From an uncultured bacterium (lineage in GTDB: Bacteria; Auribacterota; Erginobacteria; Erginobacterales; CAZKCI01), in NCBI GenBank assembly GCA_964584165.1, contig CAZOYW010000006.1:36022-100021 (forward strand): DNA of 64,000 bases, given 5' to 3'. Below the pieces are notes generated by a model. The model did no database searches, was not told the DNA's origin, and saw nothing but the letters and a program-made list of their open reading frames with translations. Every line of letters starts with the position of its first letter. Position 1 is the stretch's first letter. Made by a program: the position numbers and the translations under genes. Shown here piece after piece: positions 3,031 to 49,920 of the stretch.

Positions 3031-4461
3031 ATGAGAGAAAAATGGGACTGTGTCGTGGTGGGGGCGGGTCCGGCGGGCCTGGTGGCGGCGCGGGAACTCG
3101 CGCGGGCGGGACAGCGGGTCGTGGTGCTAGAACAACGGCAGCATGTGGGGGGATTGGCCCGCACGATCGATTTCCGGGGTTGCCGCTTCGATATCGGCCC
3201 CCACCGCTTTTTCACCAAGTCCCAGGAAGTCGAAAGATTATGGGAAAACGCGTTGGGTCCCGACTACACCCGAGTGGATCGCCTGACCCGGATCCTTTAT
3301 CGGGGCCGCTACTTTTATTATCCGCTGAAGATCCTGAACACCCTGGTCGGCCTCGGCCCCTGGGGATCCATAAAGGCCTTTGGGAGCTACCTGGCGCGCC
3401 CCCGCCGGGGCGGGGACACCTACGAGGACTACATCAGTTCCGCCTTCGGCACGGTGCTCTACGAGACATTCTTCAAGTCCTATTCCGAGAAGATCTGGGG
3501 GATCCCCTGCCGACAGATTTCTCCGGATTTCGCCGTCCAGAGGATCCATGGGCTCTCCTTCTGGACGGCGATAAAAAACGCAATGATCGCCAGCCGGCAG
3601 GGGCTCCCCAGCAAGGTCAAGTCCCTGGTCTCCTCATTTCGGTACCCCCGGCAGGGGAGCGGATCCGCTTATGACCAGCTGGCCGATGGGGTCAGGAAGG
3701 CCGGGGGAGAGATCGCCACCGGATGGAAGGTAACCGACTGGAATATCGACCGAGATTCCCAGCGACTGGAATCGGTCCTCGCCGGACGCGGGCAGGAGAG
3801 AAGGATATTCCCCGGGAACAGTTTCATCTCTACCATTCCGATCAACGAGCTGGTCTTTTCGTTCCACCCCGCTCTCCCCCATCCCGCGATCGAGGCCGCC
3901 CGCGCCCTGCGTTTCCGCGACCACATCTCCGTCAACCTGATCTTCCGCGGCCCGCGGCCTTTTCCCGATCAGTGGCTTTACCTCCATGACCCCGGGCTGT
4001 TCGCCGCCCGCCTGACCAACTACTGCAATTTTAGCCGAGAGATGAGCAGCCAGGAGGGCGTCTATCCCTTGACCATGGAATATTTCTGCTTCAAGGACGA
4101 TCGCTTCTGGGCTGAGGATGACGCCTACCTGATCGCACTAGCCACCGCCGAACTGAAGAAGCGCGTCGTGACCGGCCCGGGTGAAATCGTGGATGCGTTT
4201 GTGGTCCGCGAGCCCGACGCCTATCCGGTCTACTTCCTCAAATACCAGCCCTATCTAAAAACCATCCGAGACCATCTGGCCGGTTTCCGCAACCTGCAGC
4301 TGGCCGGGCGCTCCGGGCTCTACCGGTACAACAACATGGACCATTCGATCCTGACCGGCCTCTACGCCGCCCGCAACGTGTTGGGGGAAGCCCATGACAT
4401 CTGGCAGGTGAATGCCGACGAAATTTATCTGGAGCAAGTCCGCGAACAGGACAGCTACTAG
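3031..4461 (+). CDS. FAD-dependent UDP-galactopyranose-mutase-like flavoenzyme (Glf family-like, 476 aa)
   Basis: N-terminal Rossmann VVVGAGPAGLVAARELARAGQRVVVLEQRQHVGG; internal YETFFKSYSEKIWG and C-terminal GRSGLYRYNNMDHSILTGLYAARN resemble Glf motifs (YxxxxKGYTEKQWG; GRLAEYKYYDMHQVI). Confidence 0.6.
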   Translation: MREKWDCVVVGAGPAGLVAARELARAGQRVVVLEQRQHVGGLARTIDFRGCRFDIGPHRFFTKSQEVERLWENALGPDYTRVDRLTRILYRGRYFYYPLKILNTLVGLGPWGSIKAFGSYLARPRRGGDTYEDYISSAFGTVLYETFFKSYSEKIWGIPCRQISPDFAVQRIHGLSFWTAIKNAMIASRQGLPSKVKSLVSSFRYPRQGSGSAYDQLADGVRKAGGEIATGWKVTDWNIDRDSQRLESVLAGRGQERRIFPGNSFISTIPINELVFSFHPALPHPAIEAARALRFRDHISVNLIFRGPRPFPDQWLYLHDPGLFAARLTNYCNFSREMSSQEGVYPLTMEYFCFKDDRFWAEDDAYLIALATAELKKRVVTGPGEIVDAFVVREPDAYPVYFLKYQPYLKTIRDHLAGFRNLQLAGRSGLYRYNNMDHSILTGLYAARNVLGEAHDIWQVNADEIYLEQVREQDSY

Positions 4462-4463
4462 CC

Positions 4464-5978
4464 ATGGGCCCCCCCCGCTTCGTTTCCCTGCTTCGCCGTC
4501 TCCCCCGCCGGTCCGTCTACTGGGCGCTGCTGCTAGCCGTGGCCGCCTACGTGGGTTTCGTGGTCTCGGACTACGATCGCTGCTGGATGTGCGTCGAGGT
4601 CTGGGAGCAGCACATCCCCAATGCGGTGAAAACGGGGCCACGGCTGGTAGCTGCCGATTTTTTGCGGGGATTCGAGAACTCCCCCTATGTCATTCTCACC
4701 GGCGAATTGCGCCTCTCCTTCGTCTCCAACCTCCTCCAGCTGCTCAACGTCAAGTTCCGTCTCTGGCTGTTCCAGCACCTGCCGATCCATCCCAGCCTCT
4801 CCTTAACCTGGGTGCTGGTGGCACTGGTCTCGCCGCTGCTCGCATACCAGCTAGCCAAGGAGCTCTCCGATGCATCGGGAGCCTGGACGACGGTGCTGCT
4901 CTATTGCCTTACCACCGGCTTCCTTTCCGGGCTGACCTACTTTATGAAGCCGAGCAAATACCTGACCAATGTCTTCGCCCTTCTCTGCTTTTATCTCGCC
5001 GCCCGCCTGGTCCGGGTCTCCACCGGCGCACCCTCGTGGGGGCGGCGGCAGTGGATTCTCCTCGCCGCGCTGCTCGGGAGTATTTTTCTGTCCTTCTTCA
5101 GCGACGAGGCCACCTGGTTCGTCTACCTGTGTCTCCCGATCATGTTTCCCGCCCTCTTCTCCCGGCGGGGGAAACGAGGCTTGATCTGGGGGCTCTATTT
5201 ATCGCTGGCGCTCTTCTTCGCCCTGACCGCCGTCTATCTGGCGCCGATCCTGGTCCGGCGTTTCGGGGGGGAGGAGATCAACTTCCTCTCGACGCTGCGA
5301 ACCTATCAGGGGCTGAGAAAGGCCAGCCCCTGGGAGACCTTCCGGTTCCGCTATCTCATCGTCAACACCGTCAACCTCTTGCGCAGCCAGTTTCTGACCG
5401 GGATCCGGGCCCTGGATTACCTGTGGTTCCCGCTCGCCGGCTACCTCGTCTGGTTGGCGGCGCTGATGCCCCCCCCTCGGCGGCGTCTGGCCGGACGGAT
5501 CGTCCTGACCATTGTCCTGTTCATCGTCTTTCAATCCTTTCTCCAGGCGCAGCATCCCGGGGTCCCCAGCCGGATCCTCAACTTCGCGTATTACTACGGA
5601 GTCCTCTTCTCCCTGCTCGCCGCCCTCCTCCTGGGGCTGCTCCTCTCCGGCTCCCCGCCCCGGCCCCTGCGGGCCGTCAACACCGCTGTTCTGGTGCTGT
5701 TGATGGTCGTCTTCGCCGTCAATTTCCTCCGCATCCGTCCGGGCTACGAGACCTGGAACGATCCGGAAGGCCTGGACCGACGCCGGGTCGACCGGGGCAT
5801 GGTGATAACCTGCTGGCGCTACCGCGAGCGGCTGGACGAGCTGGAGAAGGACCACCCCGAGATCGCCCGGTGGCTGGAGGGGGAGACCTGGCTGAAAACG
5901 GAGTTGAGATACATACCCCGGCGTCTCCCCGCTCCGGGGGCCGGGGAGACAGGCGCCCCCGGAGAAGGAACCAAGTGA
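4464..5978 (+). CDS. Polytopic integral membrane protein, putative GT-C-type partner of the downstream GtrB-like GT2 (504 aa)
   Basis: About 12 predicted TM helices; start ATG 3 nt after the upstream stop; its stop overlaps the next start (GTGA). Confidence 0.6.
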   Translation: MGPPRFVSLLRRLPRRSVYWALLLAVAAYVGFVVSDYDRCWMCVEVWEQHIPNAVKTGPRLVAADFLRGFENSPYVILTGELRLSFVSNLLQLLNVKFRLWLFQHLPIHPSLSLTWVLVALVSPLLAYQLAKELSDASGAWTTVLLYCLTTGFLSGLTYFMKPSKYLTNVFALLCFYLAARLVRVSTGAPSWGRRQWILLAALLGSIFLSFFSDEATWFVYLCLPIMFPALFSRRGKRGLIWGLYLSLALFFALTAVYLAPILVRRFGGEEINFLSTLRTYQGLRKASPWETFRFRYLIVNTVNLLRSQFLTGIRALDYLWFPLAGYLVWLAALMPPPRRRLAGRIVLTIVLFIVFQSFLQAQHPGVPSRILNFAYYYGVLFSLLAALLLGLLLSGSPPRPLRAVNTAVLVLLMVVFAVNFLRIRPGYETWNDPEGLDRRRVDRGMVITCWRYRERLDELEKDHPEIARWLEGETWLKTELRYIPRRLPAPGAGETGAPGEGTK

Positions 5979-7021
5979 AATCACGCGACCAGGGGGGGGG
6001 CGGAACCAGGGCAGCCGCCGGCCGCCCCCTTTTCTCGATCGTCATCCCCGTTTACAACGCGGCCGAGACGCTCCCGGAGTGCCTGGCGAGCATCTACGCC
6101 TCCACCTTCGCCGATTTCGAGGTGATCGTCGTCGATGACGCCTCGAGCGACGGATCGGCCGCCGTCGCCCGTTCCTCCCCAGCCGCCCTCGTGAGCCTCC
6201 CCGTTAACCAGGGCCCCTCGCTGGCCCGAAACGCCGGAGCCGAGCGGGCGCGGGGCCGCTTCCTGCTCTTCACCGATGCCGATTGCCTCTTCGAGAAGGA
6301 CCTCCTGGACCGGGCCCGCCGCCGGATCGAGGAGGAGGGGGCGGCCCTGTTCGGGGGCACCTACGACCCCCGTTCCGCCGAAGGAAACTTTTACGGCGAC
6401 TTCCAGGCCCTCTACGATTTCTACCACGAGACGAAAGATCCCTGCGCTAACTACCTGGCCGCGCACCTGCTGGTGATCGAAATGGACCTCTTCCGTCGCG
6501 TGGGGGGATTCCACCGGGGGGAGTTCGTCGGCCGGGACGCCGGCTGCGAGGACCTTGACCTGAGCTATCGGCTCAAGCGCCTGGGGTGCCGACTCTCCGT
6601 CTATCCGGAGCTTAGGGTGAAGCACTACTTCGGGTTCGGCCTCTTTTCCTCCCTGCGGAATGCCGCCAAAAAGAGCTACCTCTGGGCCCAGTTCCTCCTG
6701 GCGGAGAAGCTGCTGTTTTCCGACGCCGGCGTCGGATCCACCGAGCTGAAGGCGAACGCGGCCCTGGCGCTCCTCCTCCTCTTCGGCGCGGGGGCGGGCC
6801 TGGCCGGGCGGGCCGGGGGGTGGGCGGCGGCGGCCGGGCTGTTCGTTCTCATGCTCGCGATCAACCGGCGGTTCCTTTTGTTTGCCCTGAGGCAACGGGG
6901 GGCGCTTTTCGCCCTTCAGACGGCCCTCTACCTCCTAGTCCCCTACGCCCTGAGCGTGGGGGCGGGGGGATTCCTTCTCCTCTGCCAGGTCCCCTTCCGG
7001 CGGAGGCTTTGGAGAAAGTAG
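5975..7021 (+). CDS. GT2 glycosyltransferase with C-terminal TM helices (GtrB/polyprenyl-phosphate sugar synthase-like)
   Basis: LFSIVIPVYNAAETLPECLASIYASTFADFEVIVVDDASSDGS GT-A motif; DxD-like FTDADC; two C-terminal TM helices; GTG start overlapping the upstream TGA. The 869-aa ORF 4412-7021 is a read-through artefact. Confidence 0.8.
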   Translation: MKSRDQGGGGTRAAAGRPLFSIVIPVYNAAETLPECLASIYASTFADFEVIVVDDASSDGSAAVARSSPAALVSLPVNQGPSLARNAGAERARGRFLLFTDADCLFEKDLLDRARRRIEEEGAALFGGTYDPRSAEGNFYGDFQALYDFYHETKDPCANYLAAHLLVIEMDLFRRVGGFHRGEFVGRDAGCEDLDLSYRLKRLGCRLSVYPELRVKHYFGFGLFSSLRNAAKKSYLWAQFLLAEKLLFSDAGVGSTELKANAALALLLLFGAGAGLAGRAGGWAAAAGLFVLMLAINRRFLLFALRQRGALFALQTALYLLVPYALSVGAGGFLLLCQVPFRRRLWRK

Positions 7022-7028
7022 GCGGGCC

Positions 7029-8165: not shown

Positions 8166-8230
8166 AATCGGGGGGCAGTAAGGCTATATTGTTGAAGTTC
8201 GCAGTGGCGGAGACGCGCCGGACAGCTCCC

Positions 8231-10144: not shown

Positions 10145-10187
10145 GCCGGAGAGGGGATCGGCTTGACGGGCGGAGACCTTCGTCCCC

Positions 10188-13643: not shown

Positions 13644-13706
13644 CGCGGATCGGATCGGCCCTGCATCATGTAAATGAGACCGTCCGTCGGATCGGTTGCC
13701 CGCTTC

Positions 13707-15224: not shown

Positions 15225-15248
15225 GGGTTCAGGGTTCAGGGTTCAGGG
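15225..15248. repeat. Tandem heptamer (GGGTTCA)x3 spanning the stop codon of the YfhO gene
   Basis: gggttcagggttcagggttcagggg read directly; it encodes the C-terminal ...LNPEP* on the - strand. Confidence 0.5.
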
Positions 15249-18767: not shown

Positions 18768-18777
18768 CGGGGATTAA

Positions 18778-18890: not shown

Positions 18891-19652
18891 TCATCCGAGA
18901 AGAAGATATTTCAGCCAGCTATACACGTATCGGCAAGACACCCGGCGGAGGCGGATCTTCGACTCCCCGAAGCGGCGGCTGAATTCGTGGGAGGGGATCT
19001 CGGCGATCCGGAAGCCCTTCCGCAGGGTCTTGATCGTCATCTCCTGCTCGATGGTGGTGATGTTCTCCTTGAGATCGAGGGCGCGAGCGCACTCCGCTGA
19101 GAGCGCCCGGAAGCCGTTCTGCGACTCGCTCAAGCGCACGCCGAAGCGGTAGTTGATCCCGAGCGTGATGATGTCGCTCCCGATCATCCGGAGAAACTTG
19201 TTCAAGTCGCCGTGAAGCTCGTCGGAGCCTCCCCGGGGGCGGGAGCCGACGACGTGGTCGGCCTCTCCCCGGAGGATGGGGAGGACCAGGCGGGGGATGT
19301 CGGCGGGACGGTGGGAGTAGTCGGCGTCGATAAAGACGATGACCTCGCCCGCGGCCTCCCGGATCGCGGTCCGCACGCCATCCCCCTTCCCCTTCCCCCC
19401 GTCCAGGACCACCCGGCAGCCCAAGCCGGAAGCGATCTCGCGGGTCCGGTCGGAGGAATGGCCGTCCACCACCAGGAGCTCGTCGGCGTAGGGGCGGGAG
19501 AAGCGGACGATCTCGCCGATCGACTTCTCCTCGTTCCGGGTCGGGATGACCACCGTGACCTTCTTCGTCCGGCGGCCGTACTCGGCGAGGATCTCCTCGT
19601 CGGAGCCGGCGGGGGCCCAGGGGTCGGCCGAATCGATCGGCGGGCGGTTCAT
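18891..19652 (-). CDS. GT2 polyprenyl-phosphate sugar synthase, DPM1/GtrB-like, soluble (253 aa)
   Basis: VTVVIPTRNEEKSIGEIV...VVDGHSSDRT...FIDADYSH; DPM1-type GT-A catalytic core. Confidence 0.85.
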   Translation of the reverse strand: MNRPPIDSADPWAPAGSDEEILAEYGRRTKKVTVVIPTRNEEKSIGEIVRFSRPYADELLVVDGHSSDRTREIASGLGCRVVLDGGKGKGDGVRTAIREAAGEVIVFIDADYSHRPADIPRLVLPILRGEADHVVGSRPRGGSDELHGDLNKFLRMIGSDIITLGINYRFGVRLSESQNGFRALSAECARALDLKENITTIEQEMTIKTLRKGFRIAEIPSHEFSRRFGESKIRLRRVSCRYVYSWLKYLLLG

Positions 19653-25910: not shown

Positions 25911-26128
25911 GTCATCCTCCTGCCCGCCCCGGTCCGGGCGGAGCTCGGTTAAGGGCCGCTCAGCCACGGGTCAGCCGCTGGAAAGCCCGAACGGACGGGT
26001 TGGGGCGGACGGGGCAATAGATCGCCACCAGGATGCGCCGGCGGAGGGCAACGAATACCCGCCGGCATTCGGAGTCGATCATGCTTGAGGCTTCTTCCGC
26101 CCCCCCGCGCTCCCGCGCCGCCCGACGA

Positions 26129-27898: not shown

Positions 27899-27947
27899 GG
27901 TTACTCCTCGGTCGCCGGTCGTCCCCCCCTCGCGGCGGAGTGAAGGT

Positions 27948-29447: not shown

Positions 29448-29451
29448 GGGC

Positions 29452-32951: not shown

Positions 32952-33001
32952 ATCGTTGACCGGCGCCCTCCTTGGGGGGGAGAGCGCGCGGACGGCGAAG
33001 A

Positions 33002-35230: not shown

Positions 35231-35326
35231 ATTTTTAGGCTCTTTCCTACTTAAACGGGATGGAAGAGAACCGCGATTTCTCAACAGCGATCAACGACCG
35301 AACACTGCTCGCGGCGGGGAGAGAGA

Positions 35327-40566: not shown

Positions 40567-40589
40567 GGATCTTCCGCCTCTCCTTCCGG

Positions 40590-41369
40590 TCAGGCGCGCT
40601 TGCGGGCGACCACCGCTACCGAGGTCCCCAGGGGGAATTCCCAGCGCTTGAGCCAGAACCGCTCGCAGGCCCCGAGCACGAGGAAAACAAGGTTGAGAAA
40701 GGAGTTGGTGACGGTGAGGTCGGTCTTGTGTTTCTCCAGGCGGGTCCGCTGCAGGCCCCCGACCTGCTGCGCCTTCCGGATGAGCAGCGCGGGGAGGAAG
40801 GCGGTGGGGTGGAGATAGGTGTGGCGGATGATCTCGACCGGGAAGCGCTTCAGGATCGCCGCCAGGCGGGGACGGGTGAAGCGCCGGCAGCCGCCCTCCA
40901 CGTCGTCGTGGGGACCGAAGAGGCAGTCGAAGGCCGGCTCGGAGAGAAGGACGAGACCGCCGGGACGGCAGACCCGGACCAGCTCCCCGACCACCGCCGG
41001 CACGTCCTTCACCGAACACTGGTGCAGGGTGTCGGAGCAGACCACCACGTCGGCGAGGTTCTCGCCCAGGGGGAGGAGCTGGGCGTCGCCCTGAACCTTG
41101 AGGACCGGGCCGCGGATGTAGGAGTCAAGCACCCGAAAGTTGAGATCGACGAAGACCCTCTCCCATCCCCGGGGGAACTGGGAACTGGCACCGCCCGGGC
41201 CGCAGCCCACGTCCAGGAGGAACCTCCCCCGGTCCAGATACGGCTCGACCAGATCGCTCAGGCAGCGGTAGTGGACCCGGAACCACCAATGCCGGTTGCA
41301 GAGGGCCACCATCTCGCGGTAGAGGCGTTCCCGGTCCACCGCGCCCGAGGCGGGGGAGAGGCCTTTCAC
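40590..41369 (-). CDS. Class I SAM-dependent methyltransferase
   Basis: LDVGCGPGG motif I; GTG start overlapping the upstream TGA (GTGA); the ORF's upstream extension is Arg/Pro-rich junk. Confidence 0.75.
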   Translation of the reverse strand: MKGLSPASGAVDRERLYREMVALCNRHWWFRVHYRCLSDLVEPYLDRGRFLLDVGCGPGGASSQFPRGWERVFVDLNFRVLDSYIRGPVLKVQGDAQLLPLGENLADVVVCSDTLHQCSVKDVPAVVGELVRVCRPGGLVLLSEPAFDCLFGPHDDVEGGCRRFTRPRLAAILKRFPVEIIRHTYLHPTAFLPALLIRKAQQVGGLQRTRLEKHKTDLTVTNSFLNLVFLVLGACERFWLKRWEFPLGTSVAVVARKRA

Positions 41370-43504
41370 GACGCCCTCCCCCCCGGCGGGAAAAGGGGCC
41401 GGGGCGAAAGGGCGGCGGGGAGGAGCGCCGGGCCGATCACTTCCACTTCCGCGTCGCCGGCGACCTCGATCTCGACCTCGCCGGCGGCGGCGGGGAGGGG
41501 GACGGCGAAGATTTGGAAGGCCCAGTCGTAGGTCTGCTCGCGGCGCATGAGCTCCTCGCCGGTGTCGAGCCGGCGCGCGACCAGGAGGCACCTCCTCCCG
41601 GTGGTGGGAACCGTGCGCGGGAGGACGTCATCCCCTCCGTCCGGGGTCAGGTCCGCCCGAAGCAGGAACAGGAGGGACCGCTCCGGGCCGCCGGCGGGGA
41701 TGTTCGCCCGCAGGCGCCAGCAGCCCGGCGGGAGGCGGGCGGCGACCTGGAGCCCGAGCAGGGAGAGGCGCGCCTCCGGCGCCACCGGGGCCCGGCCGGA
41801 GGGCGGGCAAGCGCGCCAGTCCCCCGGCGAAACGGCGCCGGCGACGATCGCCTTGCGCCACGACGCCAGGTCGTAGACGGTCCCGGCGGGGAGGTCCAGA
41901 TAGGCGTTCGCCGCCGCAAGGTACCCCCCCTCTTCGACCGCGACGAGGGCGCGGAACTCGTCCGGGTTGCCCAGGAGCGTCCGCTCCTCGAAATGGCGAA
42001 GGTTGAGAACGGGCATCATCATCGCGAAGACCGAGAAGGGATCGTTGTTCCAGACCCGGAGCATCAGATCCCAGCGCTCGGATATCCCCATCCGCCGGGG
42101 GCGGGGATAGGCGGCGTAGGCCGGGATGGGCAAGCTCCGGCCGCGAACCGCCCGGGAGAGTCGGAGCATCCGCTGCACGTAGCACTGGGCCTGATCGCCG
42201 TAGCCAAACCAGGAGGGGTAGCGCCGAGCGGCGATCCCCGCCGTACGGGTGTTGAGAGCGCCGATCAGAAGCAACCCTCCCAGCATTATATACCAGAGAG
42301 CAGGCCGGCGGCGCGAGAAGATATCGGCGCCGAGCGCCGCGACCATGATCATGGCTGAAGCGGCGATCGAGGCGTAGTAATACGTCTCCGCCTGGACCGA
42401 GGTCGGCTCCCGGGGAAAGATGAAGACCGTGATCAGCCAGACGTAGAGCAGCCAGGCGGCCAGGAAGCGCCAGACGCGCCGCCAGGCCAGAAGGCCGGCA
42501 CCCAGGAACAGGAGCAACGACAGTGACCGGGCGGACCAGTCGAGGAGAGGGGGGCCGTAGGGGCTCCCCCCCAGGTTGTACGCCCAGAACCAGCGCAGCC
42601 CGTTGAGGAAGAAATCCCGGGTCCGGGCCAGGAGAACGGCCGGAGAGCCGGCGAAGGGCGCCAGCGCGCCCCCGACGTATCCCAAGGGGGGCGACTCGCC
42701 GGTCACCTTCCACACCGCCCAGCGGGAGATCCCGAGCAGGACCGCGGCATAGACCAGGCCCGGGAGCGCCAGGACCAGCCCGACCAGGCCGGCGTGAGGG
42801 CGGAAGCTGCGCCATTGCAAACCCACCCAGAGGGCGAGCGCGGGAAGGAGGCAGAGGGAAACCTCGTGGGTGTGGCACTGGGCGATCAGGATCAACAGGA
42901 GCAGCAGCGCGGGCCCCCGGGCCCGACCCCGGGGGCGCTCTCTGAGCGCCGCGAGCAGGCAGAAGGAAACGACCGTGAGCAAAGCGACCAAAGGCATGTT
43001 GGACCGGCAGTTGTAGCGAAGGCCGAGCAGGGCCTCGGTCGTCATCAGCCACATCCCGCCGGCGACCAGGCCGGGGGCCCAGGAAGCGAACCAGCGGCGA
43101 CCGATCCAGGCGAGCGCCACCGCGGTGAGGAGGCCGATCAGCATGAAGAACGGCTCGTCGAGGAACGGCCCCCGGATCCGGTAGAGGGCCTGGTCGAGCT
43201 TGGCGACCAGGGCGTCCAGAAGCATCGACGGCTGGCGCGCGTCGTACATCCCGCCGTGGGAGCGCCAGACGAAGGGCTTGAGCAAGTCGGTCCGGGTCAG
43301 GGCGGCGGTCAGGGGGCCCTCCCGGATGCCGTCCTGGAGGGCGTAGTAATGGAGGCGAAGCGTCTCCGGCTGCTGCCAGCGGAGAGGATGGCGGAGCACG
43401 AAGAGGGCGGAGTTGGCGGCGGCCACCGCCGCGAAGACACAGGCGGCCGCAGTCAGCGAGCGCGGGGCGCCGCGGCGCGGTGGATTGGCGGAGGCGACGG
43501 TCAT
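41366..43504 (-). CDS. Membrane protein, paralog family B (second copy)
   Basis: LRLHYYALQDG, RHFEERTLLGNPDEF and EVIGPALLPAA are parallel to the gene at 38467-40566. Confidence 0.65.
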   Translation of the reverse strand: MTVASANPPRRGAPRSLTAAACVFAAVAAANSALFVLRHPLRWQQPETLRLHYYALQDGIREGPLTAALTRTDLLKPFVWRSHGGMYDARQPSMLLDALVAKLDQALYRIRGPFLDEPFFMLIGLLTAVALAWIGRRWFASWAPGLVAGGMWLMTTEALLGLRYNCRSNMPLVALLTVVSFCLLAALRERPRGRARGPALLLLLILIAQCHTHEVSLCLLPALALWVGLQWRSFRPHAGLVGLVLALPGLVYAAVLLGISRWAVWKVTGESPPLGYVGGALAPFAGSPAVLLARTRDFFLNGLRWFWAYNLGGSPYGPPLLDWSARSLSLLLFLGAGLLAWRRVWRFLAAWLLYVWLITVFIFPREPTSVQAETYYYASIAASAMIMVAALGADIFSRRRPALWYIMLGGLLLIGALNTRTAGIAARRYPSWFGYGDQAQCYVQRMLRLSRAVRGRSLPIPAYAAYPRPRRMGISERWDLMLRVWNNDPFSVFAMMMPVLNLRHFEERTLLGNPDEFRALVAVEEGGYLAAANAYLDLPAGTVYDLASWRKAIVAGAVSPGDWRACPPSGRAPVAPEARLSLLGLQVAARLPPGCWRLRANIPAGGPERSLLFLLRADLTPDGGDDVLPRTVPTTGRRCLLVARRLDTGEELMRREQTYDWAFQIFAVPLPAAAGEVEIEVAGDAEVEVIGPALLPAALSPRPLFPPGGRAS

Positions 43505-43547
43505 CGCGGGGTTCGTCTAGTGGAAGCGGCCGGGAAGATCCGCGGCT

Positions 43548-45389
43548 CTATTTTCGCCCGTTTGGGAGCGCGGGGCTACGTTTTTCCGCCAGGTAGAGGT
43601 AGAAGGAGTTGGGGGGCCAGTAGATCGACTGGTGGAGGGCGCGGGGGGCGTTCCCCGGCGTCTCCCGGAGGGTCGTCAGCGTGTAGCCCGGGGGGATCGT
43701 CCGCTCGGGGTCGGGGTAGAAGCGCCGCATCGCCTCCCCTTCGTAACGGGATCCGCGCGAGATGTGCATGTCCACCCAGAGGAAGCGGTCGCCGGCGGGG
43801 AAATAACCCTCCCGGACGCCGTGGACTCGCCACTCCCGCCCCCCCCAGGAAAAAGAGAAAACGGGGAAGGAGGCGGCGAAGTCGGCGTCGAGCGAGTCGG
43901 AGGGACGGGGAAAGGACGGCCAGCGGACCTCGCCGAAGCGGGAGGAACGGGCCAGGGCCATCTCGAGGATCTGGAGGTTCTGCTCGCTCGCGACCAGGCC
44001 GTCGGGGCGGCAGCGCTCGAGCGCGGCGCCGATCGCGTCGAGATCGAGGCGGGAGACCCGGTCGCGGTAGAGGCCGGGGAGCGAGAGAGCGAAAGGGAGG
44101 GCGGGAAGGAGGCAGAGGAGGAAGACGAGGAGTCGGGCGGCGCCGGTCATCCCGGGCCGGCGACCGAGAATCCCTTCGACCAGCCAGCCGTAGAAGAGGG
44201 CGAAGAGGGGAGAGAGGAAGAAGAGCTGGCGGACGCCGCCGAAGGGGACGAGGAAGAGGAGGTTGGCGGCGAAGCAGGCGAGAAGAGTGGAGAGGAGGAG
44301 ACGGGGGACGGGAGAAGCAGTGATCGGTGACCAGCGATCAGTAATCAGTCGGTCTCTCCCCCGATCGATAGCTTGTCCCCCACTGATCACTGATAACTGA
44401 TCACTGACCACTCTCTTTCTCCTCGACCAAAGACCACCGAACCTGCACGCAATCCCCGCAGCCAGAACGAGGAGGAACGGGACGGAGACCCAGTTCCAAC
44501 GGAGGGGGAGATAGACCCTGGGATCGAAGACCAGAGCGAGCTGGTAGTTGAAAAGGTCGTAAAGGCGGACCAGGAGGTAGAGCGGGAGATGGGCCATTCC
44601 TCCCCCCCCTCCCCCGCGCAGGAAGAGGGGGTAGTAGGAGTCCATGTACCAGCGGAAGGACTCGCTCCAGGGGATGATCCGGAGGAGGAGGCGGAGGTGG
44701 ACGGCACAGAGGGCGCCGTAGAGGAGAGCGCCGGGGAGCAGGGCGGTGGGAGGCCGGCGGCGCGACATGGCGCCCAGGCCCTCATAAAGCCCGCAGAGGA
44801 AGATCCCCGCGGTGAGCCAGAGCTGAGTATACATGAAGAGGGCGGAGACAAAGGCGGCGAGCGCGAAGACGACCCAGCCCCGGTAGTCGCCCCGAGGACG
44901 GGCGACAAAGAAATAGGCCGCGAGCTGGAGGGAGGAGGCGAGAAGGGCCGCGGCGTAGACGTCGGCGAACTGGCCGAAGACGACCCCCGGGACGGAGAAG
45001 GCCGCGGAAAAAGCGGCGGCGAACGCCGCCGCGGGGCGGCCCGGGAAGAGCCGGCGCGCGATCGCGAAGACCGCCGCCGCCCCCACCGCCCCTCCCCCGG
45101 CGGCGATCAGCCTCACGGCGACCAGGCTCGTCCCGGTGAAAAGCTGGAGCGCCTCCACCAGGGCCGACCAGGCGACCGTCTGGCCCGAGGCGACGTAATC
45201 CCGGACGTTGGACCAGAACTCCCCCCCCAGGACGAGAAGCGATCCGGACCAGCGAAGAGCGGGGTTGGCGTGCCAGCCGCCCAGCCATTCGTCGAACTGC
45301 ATCTGGACCCGGGAGATGAGGATCAGCCTTAAGCCCAGGGCGAGCAGACCGACGGCCAGGGCCGCGGGCCAGACCGGTCTTTCCTTCAT
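43548..45389 (-). CDS. GT39/GT83-like GT-C membrane glycosyltransferase containing an in-frame repeat-encoded insert
   Basis: N-terminal LRLILISRVQMQFDEW (GT-C DE-type motif) and many TM helices; residues ...VVSDQLSVISGGQAIDRGRDRLITDRWSPIT are encoded by the heptamer arrays at 44318-44412. Confidence 0.6.
   Translation of the reverse strand: MKERPVWPAALAVGLLALGLRLILISRVQMQFDEWLGGWHANPALRWSGSLLVLGGEFWSNVRDYVASGQTVAWSALVEALQLFTGTSLVAVRLIAAGGGAVGAAAVFAIARRLFPGRPAAAFAAAFSAAFSVPGVVFGQFADVYAAALLASSLQLAAYFFVARPRGDYRGWVVFALAAFVSALFMYTQLWLTAGIFLCGLYEGLGAMSRRRPPTALLPGALLYGALCAVHLRLLLRIIPWSESFRWYMDSYYPLFLRGGGGGGMAHLPLYLLVRLYDLFNYQLALVFDPRVYLPLRWNWVSVPFLLVLAAGIACRFGGLWSRRKRVVSDQLSVISGGQAIDRGRDRLITDRWSPITASPVPRLLLSTLLACFAANLLFLVPFGGVRQLFFLSPLFALFYGWLVEGILGRRPGMTGAARLLVFLLCLLPALPFALSLPGLYRDRVSRLDLDAIGAALERCRPDGLVASEQNLQILEMALARSSRFGEVRWPSFPRPSDSLDADFAASFPVFSFSWGGREWRVHGVREGYFPAGDRFLWVDMHISRGSRYEGEAMRRFYPDPERTIPPGYTLTTLRETPGNAPRALHQSIYWPPNSFYLYLAEKRSPALPNGRK
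44318..44412. repeat. Inverted pair of degenerate heptamer arrays (CAGTGAT-like x5 ... CACTGAT-like x4) inside a coding region
   Basis: cagtgatcggtgaccagcgatcagtaatcagtcgg ...tctcccccgatcgatagcttgtcccc... cactgatcactgataactgatcactgaccact; related to the intergenic array at 18778-18830. Confidence 0.6.
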
Positions 45390-47623
45390 GGCTTCACCTC
45401 TTTCCCAAGCGCGGGCCGGCCATGGCGCGGGGACATGATCGCGAAGACCTCGCGCAGAGACGCTTCTTCCGGCCGCCGGAATCCGCTCAGGAGGATGTAG
45501 CGCCAGGGACGCTGGTAGAAATCCCAGATCCAGAGGGTATCACCCCGCGGATCCGCCCGGTAGGGCTTCTCCCAGAGCCGCCGGTCCGCCGACACCAGGA
45601 CCTCCAGGCGTCCCACCGCGTCGGGGCGATCGAAGGCGACCAGGACATCGCTGAAGGGTCCCGACCGGTCGCTGAGGGCGATCTCCAGCTCCGGCCCGGG
45701 AGACAGGAACCTCGCGGCGGGGGCGCAGGAGAGGAGGTTCCCGTCGGTGATCGCCCCCTCCTCCCGGAACTTGACGCCGCCGACGGCCCGGATCGCTCCC
45801 GGGACGCCGTAGGCGGCGCAGATCGCCTGCCAGGGATGACGGACCGCCGCCCGGCGGCGGTATTCCCCGATCAGGCGGAGGCCGAGGTCGACGACCGCTC
45901 CCTCCCGGATCGGCTTGATCGCCATGGAGAGGGCGAGGAGGCGCTCGGCTTCCTGCAGCATCCCCGCCTCCAGGTAGCTCAAGGAGCGGAGCTGGAGGTC
46001 GTCGACCGCGTTCGACCAGTCATAGCGGAGCGTCCGCCAGCGGTCGCGGTAGAACCCAGAGCGCTCCCATTCGCCGGTCATCAGGCGGGCGCCCGCGATC
46101 CCCCGGGCCGTGAGGAGAAGGGTCGCCGCGGTGGCGAGGAGCGCGGCGAGGGCGCCGGCGGTGACGAGCCGGCGGCCGGGGGAACGGGGGAGGGTCTTCA
46201 GCGCCACCCCGAGGAGGACCAGCGGAACGACGGCGGCCGCCGCCATCCAGGCGTGGGGGGAGCGGGGTCCGGAGAGCATCACCTTGAGGACCCGGGGGAG
46301 GAGCGGAAGGGCGAGAACGGCGGCGCGCAAGAGGCCAGCGGGGGTCTCGGAGGCCGGCAGGGCGCGCACCGCCGCGGAGAGATCCGGCGGGAAGAGGCCG
46401 GAGGAGGACCGGCGGAGAAGGCCGACGAAGCCGGCGTAGGCGCAGAGGCAGGCGGCCGAGACAACGAGGAGGCGCCCCCGCCGGGTCCGCCGCCCCGCCC
46501 CGAGCGCGGCCAGGCCGATCATGAAGATCGGGGCGAGGATCAGGCAGTAGCGGGAGCCGAGGTAGGCGTGGAACTCCAGGCCGGAGCGCCGGGAGAAGAT
46601 CAGGAGGAGCTCGGCGGGCACGATCAGGGCCGAGGAGAGAGCGAGGGGGCGGAACGGGCGGGGGGCGAGGATCATGCCGAGTATCCCCAGGAAAGGGACG
46701 AGGCTCAAGGAGATGAACTCGGGGTGCCGGGGAAGGAGACGGACCAGGCTGGCCAGCTTCTCCGCGGCCAGCCCCCCTCCGTAGGGGTCGGTCCAACAGC
46801 TCCCGAACCACTCCCGGAAGATCAAAGCCTGGGGGAGAAGGGCGAGGGCAAAACCCGCGCCGAAGAGCGCGAGGAGGAGAACGGCCGCCCGCCCGACCAC
46901 CTTTCCCTCCCTCCTCCATTTCAGCGCGTAGACCGCCGGAAGGGCGATCCAGACCGCCGCCTGGAGGCGGATGAAAACGAGCCAGCCGAGGAGAAGGCCG
47001 GCGAGGAAGGCGGCGGCGGGAGGAGGAGCGGGTTGCCCGTCCAGGTAAAGGCAGAGGCTGATCAGGAGAGCGACGAAGAGGAGGGCGACCAGCTCCGAGC
47101 CGCCCGGGGTGAGAAAGAGCATCATCCAGATCTCCGTCCCCCAGAAAACCGCCGCCACCGCCAGGGCGGCCGCGGCCGGAGGCGCCAGCCGGCGGCAGAT
47201 CCGGTACATCAGGAGGAGCGCAAGGAGCCCGCAGAAGACGGCGCTGGCGTTGTACCAGAGGAGGCGATAGCCACCGACCGGACCGTAGGCGTCCGAGATC
47301 TGCCAGCGTTCGGAATCGGCCGGCCAGAGCAGGGTCTGGAAGATCTCCCCCAGCCAGAAGAAGGGGTAGGCGACCAGGGCCGCCCCGCCCGTCTGCGGCA
47401 TGGCGAGGTGGCCGGTCACGGTGAGGTGGTACTCGGTCTCCGCGAGCTTGGGCTCGTGGTCGAGGAGGAAGATGTCAGCGTCCCGGAAGAGGCTGGTGGC
47501 CAGCATGCAGTAGGTGGAGTCGACGAAGACGGGGCGATCGCTCGTCCAGAGGTAGAGGCCGCCGAGGATCGCCGCCCCGGCGCCGAGGGCGCCGAGGAGT
47601 GAACGGAGGGGGAAGGGCTTCAC
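45386..47623 (-). CDS. GT-C-like polytopic membrane protein, paralog family A (C-terminal ...REVFAIMSPRHGRPALG)
   Basis: VFVDSTYCMLATSLFRDADIFLLDHEPKLAETEYHLTVTGHLAMP is parallel to the gene at 53439-55586. GTG start overlapping the upstream TGA (GTGA); the ORF's upstream 257 aa is junk overlapping the GT2 gene. Confidence 0.7.
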   Translation of the reverse strand: MKPFPLRSLLGALGAGAAILGGLYLWTSDRPVFVDSTYCMLATSLFRDADIFLLDHEPKLAETEYHLTVTGHLAMPQTGGAALVAYPFFWLGEIFQTLLWPADSERWQISDAYGPVGGYRLLWYNASAVFCGLLALLLMYRICRRLAPPAAAALAVAAVFWGTEIWMMLFLTPGGSELVALLFVALLISLCLYLDGQPAPPPAAAFLAGLLLGWLVFIRLQAAVWIALPAVYALKWRREGKVVGRAAVLLLALFGAGFALALLPQALIFREWFGSCWTDPYGGGLAAEKLASLVRLLPRHPEFISLSLVPFLGILGMILAPRPFRPLALSSALIVPAELLLIFSRRSGLEFHAYLGSRYCLILAPIFMIGLAALGAGRRTRRGRLLVVSAACLCAYAGFVGLLRRSSSGLFPPDLSAAVRALPASETPAGLLRAAVLALPLLPRVLKVMLSGPRSPHAWMAAAAVVPLVLLGVALKTLPRSPGRRLVTAGALAALLATAATLLLTARGIAGARLMTGEWERSGFYRDRWRTLRYDWSNAVDDLQLRSLSYLEAGMLQEAERLLALSMAIKPIREGAVVDLGLRLIGEYRRRAAVRHPWQAICAAYGVPGAIRAVGGVKFREEGAITDGNLLSCAPAARFLSPGPELEIALSDRSGPFSDVLVAFDRPDAVGRLEVLVSADRRLWEKPYRADPRGDTLWIWDFYQRPWRYILLSGFRRPEEASLREVFAIMSPRHGRPALGKEVKP

Positions 47624-48480
47624 GGCGCCGCTTCCCTCCCGGCCGCGCGCCGGCCTCTGACGCGGGGATAGCTGGAGGCCTGGACCCGCCCGAGCAGCCG
47701 GGCTTGAAACCAGGCGGAGAGGATGACCCGGAGCATCCCGAAGCCGGCGCGGACAACCGCGGACGCTGAGCGGTGCATCGATGCCCCCGCCTCCCGGTGA
47801 CGGTAGCGGACCGGGACTTCCCGGAGGGGGTAGCCGCCGGCGAGCGTCCGGATGATCAGCTCGATGTCGAAGGAGAAGCGGTCGTCGTCGAACCAGGTCC
47901 GGAGGAGGTGGCGGCGGTCCCAGGCGTGGAACCCCGCGGTGACGTCGGTGACCCGGGTCCCGGTCAGGGCGGAGACCAGGAGGGAGAGGAAGGAGTTGCC
48001 CAGGTCGCGCAGACGGTCCCTCGCCTCCGGGGACCAATCCCCGCCCCGGAAGCGCGAGGCGTGGGCGAGAACGCACTCCCCCCGCGCCACGGGGTAGAGG
48101 AGGGAGGGGAGGTCCTCGGGGGCGAACTGGAGATCGGCGTCGATCGTCCCCTGGAGGTCGCGCGCGGCGGCGAGGATCCCCACCTTGCTCGCGTGCCCCT
48201 TGCCGTAATCCGGGCGGTTGCGGATCGTCCGGACCAGGCGGTCGGACCGGCCGATCGCCTCGGCGATCTCGGCCGTGCGGTCGTTTCCGCCGTGGACGAC
48301 CAGGATCTCGGCCCGGGGCAGGACGCCCCGGAGGCGCGAGATCAGCTCGGCGATCGTCCCCGCCTCGTTGAAGCAGGCGACGATCACGCTGCACTCGACC
48401 GTCCGGGCGAAGTCCCGCAGGGCGGCGGGGACCTCGGGAACGGCGGAGGAGAACGGCGGATCGCCGGTCGGGCCACTCAT
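47620..48480 (-). CDS. GT2 polyprenyl-phosphate sugar synthase, DPM1-like (286 aa)
   Basis: CSVIVACFNEAGTIAELI...VVHGGNDRTAEIA...TIDADLQF; start ATG 48480 with a GGGGAGG RBS. Confidence 0.8.
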   Translation of the reverse strand: MSGPTGDPPFSSAVPEVPAALRDFARTVECSVIVACFNEAGTIAELISRLRGVLPRAEILVVHGGNDRTAEIAEAIGRSDRLVRTIRNRPDYGKGHASKVGILAAARDLQGTIDADLQFAPEDLPSLLYPVARGECVLAHASRFRGGDWSPEARDRLRDLGNSFLSLLVSALTGTRVTDVTAGFHAWDRRHLLRTWFDDDRFSFDIELIIRTLAGGYPLREVPVRYRHREAGASMHRSASAVVRAGFGMLRVILSAWFQARLLGRVQASSYPRVRGRRAAGREAAP

Positions 48481-48598
48481 GGCGTGGACGCCTCCCCGAT
48501 ATTGGGTTCTCTTCCGTTTCGCGTGGGTTATTTCACGGGGAACGGCAGCCTGCCCTGAGTTTGTCGAAGGGTTTCGCCGCGACCCGGCCCCCGCCGGG

Positions 48599-48710
48599 CC
48601 TGTGGGAGCGACATTCCTGTCGCGATCCGAGCCAGCCGAGCCTGTGGGAGCGCCGTCCCCGGCGCGATCCGAGTTGGCCCGGATCGGGGCAAGAATGCCC
48701 CTCCCACACA
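48599..48710. repeat. REP-like palindromic element, second locus (one and a half units)
   Basis: cctgtgggagcgacattcctgtcgcgatcc... cctgtgggagcgccgtccccggcgcgatccgagttggcccggatcggggcaagaatgcccctcccaca; about 85% identical to 17613-17682. Confidence 0.6.
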
Positions 48711-48756
48711 ATCCGGCGTCTATCGCCAATTTACCCATACATGAGGAAGAGAACCG

Positions 48757-49920
48757 TTAATGGCTTGAGCTGAAGATACCGTTCCAGATGGACAAGCCCT
48801 GGAAAAAGCGGGCGAAGGTCTCCCGGTCCGCCCGGTCCTCGGTTCGTTCGACGAGCTCCCTCCCCGCCGCCGCGAGTTCCCGGCAGCAGGAACAGTAATC
48901 ATTCCCGGCGAGGCGGACGCCCCGGAGAAAGGCGCAAAGGGCATCGGAAAGCCGCATCCCCGCCTGCTCATTCTCGAAGTCGCGGAAGAAGTCGTGGGGA
49001 TTGCGCTCCTGGGCGACCAGGGGGAAGCCGTAGCTCACCCGGTCGCCCAGGTGGTCGGAGATCGCCCTCACCACGTAGGCGGCCCAGATGTCGTCATACC
49101 TACCGATCGCCGGGCTCAGGAAATAGGCCGGGATCACCTCCCGGGCCAGCGCGGTGTTCTGGGAGTTGAAGGGGGCCCAGGTCCCCGGCTCCAGAGCGAA
49201 GTTGGCCTCTCGCGCGTAGCGCTCCACCCTAAGCTCCTTGTAGAGATGGGTCAGGGCGTCGACGTCGGGGACGCCGAGCCAGAGGCCGGCGTTGACCGCG
49301 AGACGCCCCTCGGCCTGCCGCGCGCGATAGTCGCCGTCCTTCCATCTCGCCCCCATCGGGTAGCCTCGGGGATAGAAGGGGAAAGCCGTCCGCTCCTCGA
49401 GAAAGCGGCAGACGTTGAACCAGCCGGAATCGGAGGCGAAGCTCTCGAGCGCGGCCCGACGGCCGACCACGGAGTGCGCCCCCAAATAATCCCCCTCCCG
49501 GACGAAGTTGTCGTCGTCGATGGTGACGATCACCTCCGCCCCCTGCTGGTAGGCGTAGAGCGTCGAAAGGTTCCTCCTCTGGATGACGTTCCAGGGGAGG
49601 TGGGCGAGGAGGTCGCGGTGGGCGGCGAAGGCCTCCTCCTGGCGCGCGGCCGGGAAAAAGATCATCTCCTCCCCGAAACGGCGGCGCAGCCCGGCCAGGA
49701 GATCTTCGACTGCCCGGTCCGGCGTCTTCCGGTCGCCGGCGATCACCCAGAGGACTCCGCGGTGGCCGTAGCGTGCGGCGTTTTCGAGGTACCCCTCGAG
49801 GAGACGGGGGACGTGGATGGTGGTGGTGACCACCGCTGTGGCTCGATCGGTCATGGTCGACGGCATGACTTCCGGAAGCGGCCCCGCCGCAGTTGATGGC
49901 CGCACGCCCGGATTATTCAC
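48757..49920 (-). CDS. RGP (reversibly glycosylated polypeptide)/GT75-family protein, putative UDP-L-arabinopyranose mutase
   Basis: IVTIDDDNFV, FYPRGYPMGARW, AGLWLGVPDVDA and GRYDDIWAAYVVRAISDHLG match plant RGP motifs ([54 protein letters not shown]). The start is uncertain: GTG 49920 lies inside the palindrome, and ATG 49866 and ATG 49854 are alternatives. Confidence 0.65.
   Translation of the reverse strand: MNNPGVRPSTAAGPLPEVMPSTMTDRATAVVTTTIHVPRLLEGYLENAARYGHRGVLWVIAGDRKTPDRAVEDLLAGLRRRFGEEMIFFPAARQEEAFAAHRDLLAHLPWNVIQRRNLSTLYAYQQGAEVIVTIDDDNFVREGDYLGAHSVVGRRAALESFASDSGWFNVCRFLEERTAFPFYPRGYPMGARWKDGDYRARQAEGRLAVNAGLWLGVPDVDALTHLYKELRVERYAREANFALEPGTWAPFNSQNTALAREVIPAYFLSPAIGRYDDIWAAYVVRAISDHLGDRVSYGFPLVAQERNPHDFFRDFENEQAGMRLSDALCAFLRGVRLAGNDYCSCCRELAAAGRELVERTEDRADRETFARFFQGLSIWNGIFSSSH

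Follow-up and report, generated by a model that had tools for sequence, protein, structure and literature searches.

Two evolutionarily unrelated predicted NDP-sugar furanose mutases, each beside a family-2 glycosyltransferase and a polytopic membrane protein, in a putative cell-envelope glycan island of an uncultured bacterium

We have analysed a 64,000-nt stretch of DNA (contig CAZOYW010000006.1, positions 36,022 to 100,021; hereafter the window, to whose positions and genes all coordinates and g-numbers refer), which is best explained as most of a >60 kb cell-envelope glycan island of an uncultured, high-GC, lipid-A-containing (diderm) bacterium. As judged from their sequences, two of its genes, g02 and g30, represent uncharacterised subfamilies of the UDP-galactopyranose mutase (UGM)-like and GT75 mutases, respectively, in an unusually large island that also carries unannotated families of GT-C glycosyltransferases. 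The best explanation of this arrangement, to which we give a probability of about 0.55, is that two unrelated mutases would form nucleoside diphosphate (NDP)-furanoses, which adjacent family-2 glycosyltransferases (GT2s) would load on lipid for transfer outside the membrane by GT-C enzymes. In the cytoplasm, NDP-pyranoses would be converted into NDP-furanoses by g02 (flavin) and g30 (metal), two enzymes without common evolutionary origin; the g02 product would go to g04, which has transmembrane (TM) helices, and the g30 product to g29, of the ArnC/DPMS/GtrB class. Each GT2 would load its furanose on a membrane lipid, probably polyprenyl phosphate, and after flipping, GT-C-fold enzymes (g03; g24 and g26; perhaps g28, g33 and g21; the YfhO-like and PMT_2-like proteins) would pass it to an extracytoplasmic glycan or protein. 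What is directly observed is the family to which each protein belongs, its conserved residues, the adjacency of the genes, the GT-C fold of g03 and a recurrent neighbourhood of short-chain dehydrogenase/reductase (SDR), GT2, GT75 and GT-C genes; from these we infer that g02 and g30 are mutases, which substrates they use, the lipid-linked intermediate and the acceptor. The six genes at the core of the proposal are these:

g02: 3031..4461, + strand, FAD-dependent UGM-like flavoprotein of the PRK07208 / NF005548 family, predicted NDP-sugar pyranose/furanose mutase
g03: 4464..5978, + strand, polytopic membrane protein with a GT-C glycosyltransferase fold, between g02 and g04
g04: 5975..7021, + strand, GT2 with C-terminal TM segments (PF00535, E 4.9e-30)
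g30: 48757..49854, − strand, GT75 (RGP family) protein of a bacterial 'T-K-x-I...Q' clade, predicted NDP-pyranose mutase
g29: 47620..48483, − strand, soluble GT2 like ArnC, DPMS and GtrB (polyprenyl-phosphate glycosyltransferase class), immediately downstream of g30
g28: 45386..47620, − strand, near-orphan polytopic membrane protein downstream of g29, possibly GT-C-related

A previous sequence-only reading of this DNA had singled out the genes at 3031-4461 (+) and 48757-49920 (−); both are real and contain the motifs it quoted. The longest ORF of g30 runs from 48757 to 49920, with a likely start at M23 (49854) that gives 365 aa, as in the 98%-identical protein P0001. Its blocks TIDDDNFV (aa 133-140), GRYDDIWA (aa 273-280) and DHLG (aa 289-292) had been taken as the signature of plant RGP/UDP-arabinopyranose mutases (UAMs), and the family assignment is borne out by PF03214 (57.6 bits, cut-off 23.8, E 1.6e-15), but the affinity to the plant enzymes is not: g30 aligned over its full length with the MtdL structures 7xpr/7yua (E 1.8e-50, 36% identity) and only over aa 206-356 with the UAM structure 8cid (E 5.9e-6). 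Its identity to AtRGP1 is around 25%, a figure that is indicative only. We mapped the functional residues of MtdL reported in PMC9937993 onto g30 and 120 homologues. Sixteen of the 20 are identical in g30, comprising the DDD-N group, R159, D195, S228/Q229, R257, D260, R289, H292, I15, D40, R90 and T13 of MtdL; conserved in g30 are D135-D137, N138, R185, D219, S253/Q254, R274, D277, R306 and H309, together with T33, the counterpart of the Thr13 that contacts guanine N2. The D135-D137, R185 and D277 positions (MtdL D109-D111, R159 and D260) are invariant in the 120 homologues, and in MtdL R159 is the nucleophile and autoglycosylation site and D260 the general base (PMC9937993). MtdL and Hyg20, which are GDP-L-galactose/GDP-L-fucose pyranose-furanose mutases, were the only characterised bacterial GT75 proteins in 2023 (PMC9937993). 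By these alignments g30 is a metal-dependent GT75 enzyme whose closest characterised relatives are MtdL and Hyg20, not the plant UAMs, and mutase activity is its most likely predicted function.

The second candidate, g02, is a complete ORF from ATG to stop (476 aa) in which GAGPAG, GPHRF, YSEKIWG and GRSGLYRYNNMDHS are literally present, and an identical protein is called on the metagenomic contig ENA ERZ15185029 NODE_2. NCBIfam model NF005548 (PRK07208.1-4, 'hypothetical protein') covers aa 6-474 with 496.3 bits (cut-off 389). Its 22 best PDB matches are UDP-galactopyranose mutases without exception, with full-length HMMER alignments to the Aspergillus fumigatus (4u8l) and Trypanosoma cruzi (4dsg) enzymes, and a profile of 34 family members matched eukaryotic UGMs at E 7.6e-42; the best non-UGM flavoenzyme reached 1.2e-13 over the Rossmann segment only, non-UGM PDB matches being confined to aa 1-100. 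In the HMMER alignments H58, Y151, W156 and R171 correspond to H63, Y162, W167 and R182 of A. fumigatus UGM (AfUGM), W315, Y317 and R327 to W315, Y317 and R327, and Y398, R427, Y433 and N435 to Y419, R447, Y453 and N457. Almost all of these eleven residues are invariant in the family, and eight, H58, Y151, W156, R171, R327, Y398, R427 and Y433, are so across all 34 members, so that the expected UDP-binding residues are in place; we take them to represent the histidine loop at the flavin, the diphosphate-binding Arg pair, the phosphate-binding Tyr pair and uridine stacking. The g02 family is thus a sister group of the eukaryote-type UDP-galactopyranose mutases that retains their His loop and their diphosphate/uridine Arg, Tyr and Trp residues. 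It is clearly UGM-related, and mutase activity is the most likely prediction for it as well.

Genes g02, g03 and g04 are adjacent and co-directional, and so are g30, g29 and g28. Since each mutase candidate lies beside a GT2 and a polytopic protein (GT-C by modelling for g03, GT-C-like for g28), a logic of lipid-linked donor plus GT-C transfer appears plausible. The AF2 model of g03 (pLDDT 89.7, pTM 0.91) had GT-C enzymes exclusively as its top 27 Foldseek matches in the PDB (STT3, AftB 9dlf, PglB, AglB, Pmt4, ArnT, DPY19, ALG3), with probabilities of 0.72-1.00 (24 at 0.99 or above), E-values of only 7e-4 to 0.15 and TM scores of 0.28-0.47 (0.35-0.47 in the top 20) that do not discriminate among oligosaccharyltransferases, ArnT, PMT and AftB. 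On this model a GT-C fold can be confidently assigned to g03, and its donor would be a polyprenyl-phosphate-linked sugar, as the fold and the neighbouring GT2 suggest. Its family (300 representative homologues) has no Pfam or NCBIfam model, 51 members yielding only scattered, single-member weak Pfam matches. Its neighbour g04, called as a 348-aa gene on the metagenomic contig, has four hydrophobic segments at aa 258-340, and homologues of g04 adjoin UGM-like genes in two other loci (L088 and L089). On the g30 side, the ORF of g29 extends to 48738, with M86 as likely start; the protein matches PF00535 (E 9e-18), its only PDB matches are ArnC, Dol-P-Man synthase and GtrB, weak NCBIfam matches point to Dol-P-hexose transferase and AglJ, and an orthologue (59-61% identical) directly follows the GT75 gene of L085, the closest relative locus. 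Downstream, g28 has at least 12 hydrophobic segments and three homologues only in 5.8 billion protein clusters, which makes the g28/g33/g21 family (polytopic, ~700-750 aa) nearly lineage-specific; the AF2 model of g28, from a five-sequence alignment, is unusable (pLDDT 46), though it suggests a beta-rich C-terminal domain.

The association of GT75 with GT2 and GT-C genes recurs far beyond the window. Contrary to the statement that RGP homologues are rare in bacteria, a protein search found at least 1925 homologues of g30 among the scored candidates, and a genomic scan with one genome per species confirmed at least 566 loci of the clade in >10 phyla, its hosts including Patescibacteria, Chloroflexota, Dormibacterota, Acidobacteriota, Planctomycetota, Gammaproteobacteria, Actinomycetes, Nitrospirota and archaea. 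The clade is present in culturable strains (Kitasatospora cystarginea JCM 7356, Streptomyces enissocaesilis JCM 9088 and Nocardioides sp. SYSU D00038), so the hypothesis is directly testable; our literature search for a characterised member of the clade returned the MtdL structure paper only. We compared the neighbourhoods of 81 such loci from >10 phyla, counting partners within three genes. An extended NDP-sugar SDR of ~355 aa lies directly upstream of the GT75 gene in 29 of them, and a ~254-aa AglJ/PgfS/Dol-P-hexose-transferase/ArnC-like (DPM1-like) GT2 occurs in 39, mostly one or two genes away. GT-C-like membrane proteins, recognised by weak PMT_2 matches, accompany the clade in about 23 of the 81, one of them matching the AftB-type arabinofuranosyltransferase model NF041481 at 4e-10, and a flippase-like LPG_synthase_TM protein is found in five. 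GDP-mannose 4,6-dehydratase (GMD), which single-linkage clustering had put forward as a neighbour, was rejected, its representative being atypical and the usual upstream gene the ~355-aa SDR. In two Bryobacterales metagenome-assembled genomes (MAGs) the GT75-clade gene is directly followed by a g02-like gene of 40-42% identity (L022:9965-12584 and L023:3034-9061), and in L023 a g04-like GT2 comes next, so that some Acidobacteriota have genes of the two mutase families side by side. A phmmer search with the window's 14 large polytopic membrane proteins gave almost no matches among the ORFs of the 81 related loci, which indicates that the GT-C-like set of the window differs from that seen elsewhere.

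Several observations weigh against the lipid-linked route from two mutases. The lipid-linked step is deduced from adjacency, and GT2s like GlfT2 use an NDP-furanose directly; g29 is without TM helix; and the possible GT-C status of g28 comes from an hhalign probability of 70% (E 4e-5) between the g28/g33/g21 group and the g03 family. These points bear on a serious alternative, which we regard as a tentative possibility, in which the mutases are real but their NDP-furanoses would be used directly by cytoplasmic GlfT-like GT2s on a lipid-linked oligosaccharide, the GT-C and other polytopic proteins using other donors. Both GlfT1 and GlfT2 belong to GT2, the closest structural neighbour of MtdL is GlfT2 (PMC9937993), and the PDB matches of g04 are general GT2s, not ArnC or DPMS. 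On the other hand, those of g29 belong to the polyprenyl-phosphate class only, the clade's GT2 is often followed by GT-C-like or flippase-like proteins, and the GT-C enzyme g03 sits between g02 and g04; we favour the lipid-linked donor.

As GT75 proteins are also arginine autoglycosyltransferases, mutase activity is not guaranteed for g30, and PF03214 covers only its C-terminal half (aa 206-360). Moreover, four functional MtdL residues are replaced (N42 by K65, S86 by V112, D87 by I113 and the Mn ligand H287 by Q304). Lys, Ile and Gln are the consensus at their positions in 111-118 of the 120 homologues (118 with Gln in place of H287), and the T-K-S/C/V-I...Q signature is found in about 70 of the 81 genomic ones, nearly all of which have this Gln. 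The Asp87 replaced by Ile113 is essential to MtdL, which D87N and D87S inactivate, and the Mn-coordinating His287, retained by the active plant RGPs, is missing from the inactive AtRGP5 (PMC9937993), hence the mutase activity of g30 is not assured. It might then retain only the glycosyltransferase side of GT75 (arginine self-glycosylation, or another acceptor), for which there is a weak match to the STELLO glycosyltransferase, or be a non-catalytic partner like the class-2 plant RGPs. We consider this unlikely. The other residues of catalysis and substrate binding do not vary among the 120 homologues, a sign that the enzymatic pocket is conserved; active plant RGPs carry Ser, not Asp, at position 87 (PMC9937993); and NDP-sugar SDRs and downstream transferases are tightly associated with the clade. 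The MtdL-type pair D87 plus H287 occurs in two loci only among the 81, the two residues changing together (Ile with Gln, Asp with His), as would be expected of a remodelled pocket in a distinct subfamily rather than of a decayed copy. Altered in this manner (N42 to Lys, D87 to Ile, H287 to Gln), the pocket of g30 probably accepts a sugar, and possibly a nucleotide, different from those of MtdL.

Likewise, g02 gave no match to PF03275 (Glf) even at E ≤ 1, an outcome that the sequence-only reading had named as refuting its proposal, and its match to TIGR00031 was limited to the N-terminus and remained at 68.5 bits (cut-off 303.75); a literature search on PRK07208 turned up no characterised member, only the MtdL structure paper. 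The Glf-likeness proposed from its motifs therefore holds at the levels of UGM family profile and of residues and not at that of the curated Glf models, although 31 of the 34 family members do match PF03275 weakly (best 6e-8). Its best Pfam match is Amino_oxidase (E 9e-26), accompanied by NAD_binding_8, and the family (at least 3844 matches) is publicly annotated as 'FAD-dependent oxidoreductase' or 'protoporphyrinogen oxidase', so g02 could be read as a common redox flavoenzyme with a sugar or lipid substrate (an amine oxidase, a protoporphyrinogen oxidase or a desaturase-like protein) and no mutase activity. That appears improbable, since beyond the Rossmann segment UGMs alone match, the UGM substrate-binding residues are all invariant, and the family is embedded among glycan genes in four genomes, including one of Chloroflexi (neighbours GT2 and Wzx), one of Verrucomicrobia (UDP-Glc dehydrogenase and an SDR) and that of a 66%-identical relative (B12-binding radical SAM, PMT_2, GT2 and radical SAM-SPASM genes).

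Concerning the substrates, the sugars proposed from sequence alone were galactofuranose (Galf) and arabinofuranose (Araf), neither of which can be assigned to g02 or g30. For g30, a GDP-linked substrate of the L-galactose/L-fucose type or a 6-deoxyhexose might be weakly favoured over UDP-L-arabinose, because GDP-sugars are the substrates of its nearest characterised relatives, it has Thr13 but not the plant Asp86, and an Fcl-like gene lies near its counterpart in L085 and an Fkp-like gene near the window. At positions 13, 42 and 86 the plant UDP-type residues are Pro, Asp and Asp, and S86D in MtdL abolishes GDP binding (PMC9937993). In L085, where g30 has its 58%-identical counterpart, the GT75-GT2 pair is followed by an Fcl-like SDR that scores 288 bits to GDP-L-fucose synthase, below the cut-off. 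A 1044-aa protein encoded 3.6-6.7 kb to the left of the window resembles, at aa 178-535, the fucokinase part of the bifunctional Fkp (94.9 bits, below cut-off), with a weak UDPGP pyrophosphorylase match, and may provide a salvage route to an NDP-sugar for the island. This case is weakened by the altered pocket, which predicts another sugar, and by two further points that also count against the proposed route: tblastn of SDR, GMD and Fcl queries found none of them in the window, and the clade's SDR could be either a UDP-hexose 4-epimerase or a GDP-mannose 3,5-epimerase, with UDP-Glc or UDP-GlcA 4-epimerase, GDP-Man 3,5-epimerase and Fcl as its top matches in the PDB and NCBIfam.

Given the GDP-type T33 and the likeness to MtdL, UDP-Araf is not the favoured product of g30, and we hold very doubtful, as the least probable of the alternatives, that g30 is a plant-type UDP-L-arabinopyranose mutase and g02 a Glf that feed Araf and Galf into an arabinogalactan-like polymer via lipid-linked Araf: the RGP signature blocks and the PF03214 match would suit it, as would the capacity of plant GT75 enzymes to make UDP-Galf too (PMC9937993), AftB among the top structural matches of g03, the clade neighbour that matches an arabinofuranosyltransferase model and the Verrucomicrobia UGM-like gene that follows UDP-Glc dehydrogenase and an SDR, as in a UDP-pentose route, but the E-value of g30 is better by ~45 orders of magnitude for MtdL than for the UAM structure, g30 has Thr where the UDP-using plant enzymes have Pro, the Foldseek ranking of g03 among GT-C enzymes is not discriminating, general Pfam scans of the window ORFs gave no UbiA, DprE1 or DprE2-type families, and the host, which has LpxD, is diderm.

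Apart from the two mutase modules, the window (G+C 66-69%, strong third-position bias) consists of a short + strand operon (3031-10144) and one co-directional − strand array of >30 genes that runs from 63641 to 10188; an identical sequence occupies record positions 95582-159581 of ERZ15185029 NODE_2 (349,689 bp). Pfam and NCBIfam scans of the window ORFs revealed 4-5 family-2 glycosyltransferases and one GT9, two methyltransferases, a split transketolase and an RmlC-like epimerase; an Rfam scan of the window gave no RNA families. Most of the 14 large polytopic membrane proteins have no family match. The sequence-only reading had spoken of many GT-C enzymes, which is largely confirmed: 7 to 11 of the 14 have evidence of a GT-C fold, and g13, g27 and g32 received no such assignment. 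The further membrane proteins and GT2s are:

g33: 53439..55541, − strand, polytopic, paralogue of g28 (42% identity, blastp E 4e-119), called as a 715-aa gene on the metagenomic contig
g21: 33002..35284, − strand, polytopic, paralogue of g28 and g33 (blastp g21-g28 E 7e-20)
g24: 38467..41019, − strand, polytopic membrane protein homologous to the g03 GT-C family
g26: 41366..43504, − strand, paralogue of g24 (blastp E 3e-41), related to the g03 GT-C family
g20: 30468..33215, − strand, GT-C of the PMT_2 type (PF13231, 36.7 bits vs 26.1; PF02366, 28 bits vs 22.7)
g19: 29452..30438, − strand, GtrB/ArnC/PgfS-like GT2 with TM segments at aa 230 and 280, candidate polyprenyl-phosphate sugar synthase
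g11: 18891..19652, − strand, AglJ/DPM1-like GT2 (TIGR04182 AglJ, E 6.8e-43, below cut-off)
g01: 179..2734, − strand, YfhO-like (GT-C type) membrane protein (PF09586, 23.7 bits, weak)
g09: 15229-17517, YfhO-like (PF09586, 29.7 bits vs cut-off 28.5)
g12 (19887-22373) and g23 (36035-38494): paralogues of g01 and g09

In hhalign, g24 and g26 matched the g03 family with a probability of 99.0% (E 8.9e-18, 370 columns). The paralogy of g01, g09, g12 and g23 is supported by E-values of 7e-73 to 2e-12, and their matches to PgfM1/M2 are weak. Both NF047588 PgfS (E 6.8e-56) and ArnC (E 6.3e-37) recognise g19 below their cut-offs, and no other window protein resembles the ~254-aa GT2 found with the GT75 clade in other phyla as closely as g11 does. 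The C-terminal ankyrin repeats of g20 (aa 780-880) are an unusual combination for a bacterial membrane glycosyltransferase.

The remaining genes of the island could give some indications of the glycan that it builds:

B12-binding radical SAM proteins: 13707-15188, 27948-29471, 55538-57094, 57129-58520 and 62202-63641
SPASM/twitch radical SAM proteins: 7029-8165, 17715-18767, 50110-51153 and 59941-60996
Sulfatase/phosphodiesterase-superfamily proteins: 8230-10144 (+), 10188-13643 (−), 23963-25381 (−) and 58514-60031 (−)
RmlC-like 3,5-epimerase, then split transketolase (separate N- and C-terminal subunits), then B12-binding radical SAM protein: 25389-28213, − strand
GT9 (heptosyltransferase family): 60993-62147, − strand, 64-66% identity in L085

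The nine radical SAM genes, five B12-binding and four SPASM/twitch, all carry CxxxCxxC, and the set is also found in the relative loci L085 and L089. So many radical SAM genes are unusual in a polysaccharide locus, and they suggest that sugars undergo C-methylation, epimerisation or another radical reaction. The RmlC-like/transketolase/radical SAM run could mean that a 4-keto-6-deoxy sugar is branched or extended by two carbons, and the embedded, conserved GT9 points to an LPS-core-like or glycolipid acceptor. One of the four sulfatase/phosphodiesterase-superfamily proteins is fused to TPR repeats. Three of them, g06, g07 and g14, are without the C/S-x-P-x-R formylglycine motif, though radical SAM/SPASM genes adjoin, and in the fourth, g36, a match to S-x-P-x-R lies outside the sulfatase domain. 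We therefore rejected for now the reading of the radical SAM-SPASM/sulfatase pairs as sulfatases with their anaerobic maturases, the motif being absent in g06, g07 and g14; LtaS/EptA-like transferases of phospho-substituents are more likely than true sulfatases. The island continues past position 64000 (L090:1-7027) with genes for a GalE-like SDR, for three aminotransferases of the DegT/PseC type and for a further radical SAM protein, ordered as in the left part of L085, so that synthesis of amino- or deoxy-sugars belongs to the same locus.

With regard to the host, the same contig encodes, 2.5-3.5 kb to the left of the window, an LpxD that passes both curated models (TIGR01853, 342 bits vs 242.5); it lies with the Fkp-like gene at L091:15205-19476 on ERZ15185029 NODE_2. 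The bacterium thus makes lipid A and is diderm, which rules out an actinobacterium. Among MAGs, GCA_003551625 has the g02 operon most like that of the window (g02 66%, g05 59%, g04 49% and g20 45% identity); it comes from a soda lake and was described in 2025 as belonging to the 'PUNC01' clade, close to Auribacterota within the PVC superphylum, among anaerobic lineages (PMC12057145). The earlier impression of a non-actinobacterial anaerobe is accordingly sustained by LpxD as to the first part, and as to the second agrees with the anaerobic lineages near this relative. L085 shares the GT9, radical SAM, phosphodiesterase-like and B12-binding radical SAM genes with the window at 58-74% identity. 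Among the related islands, gene order is shared and protein identity is 45-74%, but G+C spreads from 52% in L085 and 58% in L089 to 66-69% in the window, which makes the taxonomic placement of the window tentative; the composition may have diverged rapidly within one lineage, or the island may have been transferred horizontally.

Bacterial furanoses are known mainly as Galf, made by Glf, and as mycobacterial Araf, made via decaprenyl-phosphoryl-arabinofuranose (DPA), and to our knowledge furanose sugars are absent from mammals. GT75 mutases have so far been treated as plant enzymes, with two exceptions from antibiotic pathways of actinomycetes (PMC9937993). Our findings indicate that GT75 proteins of an uncharacterised clade, remodelled in their active site, are common among the bacterial phyla (lineages of the candidate phyla radiation included) and are systematically linked to lipid-directed GT2s and GT-C enzymes, while a second uncharacterised family, the eukaryotic-UGM-like one of g02, is equally widespread. 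We put forward tentatively, as a broader idea that may well prove wrong, that the 'T-K-x-I...Q' clade is a new functional branch of the metal-dependent NDP-sugar mutases which serves, with SDR, GT2 and GT-C partners, a widespread and undescribed route to polyprenyl-phosphate-furanoses, the window being an extreme elaboration of it with a second, flavin-dependent mutase module and orphan GT-C families. If the predicted activities are real, the glycobiology of bacterial envelopes would generally involve lipid-linked furanose donors, several unannotated GT-C families would gain a function and new NDP-furanose-forming biocatalysts would become available.

Each part of the proposed system has a known counterpart from which it also departs. 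The eukaryote-type UGMs (A. fumigatus 3ute/4u8l, T. cruzi 4dsg) and bacterial Glf (1i8t) align with g02 over its full length with identical functional residues, but g02 remains under the thresholds of PF03275 and TIGR00031, belongs to the separate NCBIfam family NF005548 and has Ser in place of AfUGM Asn163. MtdL of Marinactinospora thermotolerans (A201A pathway; 7xpr, 7yua) and Hyg20 of Streptomyces hygroscopicus share with g30 the DDD(N) motif, the nucleophilic Arg and Thr13; they belong to antibiotic gene clusters of actinomycetes, whereas g30 lies in a predicted envelope-glycan island with GT2 and GT-C genes in a diderm host. The plant RGP/UAM proteins (GT75; 8cid) have in common with it PF03214, the TIDDD, RGYP and GRYDD.WA...DHLG blocks and the autoglycosylated Arg, and yet none of their Pro13, Asp42 and Asp86 is found in g30 (T33, K65 and V112). 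As for the membrane steps, GtrA/GtrB/Gtr*, CsbB/YfhO, PgfS/PgfM and ArnC/ArnT likewise pair a small GT2 with GT-C membrane enzymes, YfhO-like ones included; compared with these three-component systems, the island adds the pyranose-furanose mutases and brings together 14 polytopic proteins and 4-5 GT2s, and most of its GT-C-like proteins, unlike theirs, fall outside every Pfam and NCBIfam family.

In mycobacteria, DPA is made from phosphoribosyl pyrophosphate (PRPP) via UbiA and DprE1/E2, with no NDP-furanose. The resemblance to mycobacterial arabinogalactan assembly suggested by the sequence-only reading is reduced to an analogy, which stands as regards mutases placed beside a GT2 and a membrane protein and fails as regards UbiA and DprE1/E2. 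DPA with the Emb and Aft enzymes follows the same logic of a lipid-linked furanose used by GT-C enzymes outside the membrane, and AftB is among the best structural matches of g03; the 'T-K-x-I...Q' clade may represent a functional analogue that proceeds via an NDP-furanose. The mycobacterial route starts from PRPP, while that of the island would combine NDP-sugar mutases with GT2s, so that the two would be analogous and not homologous.

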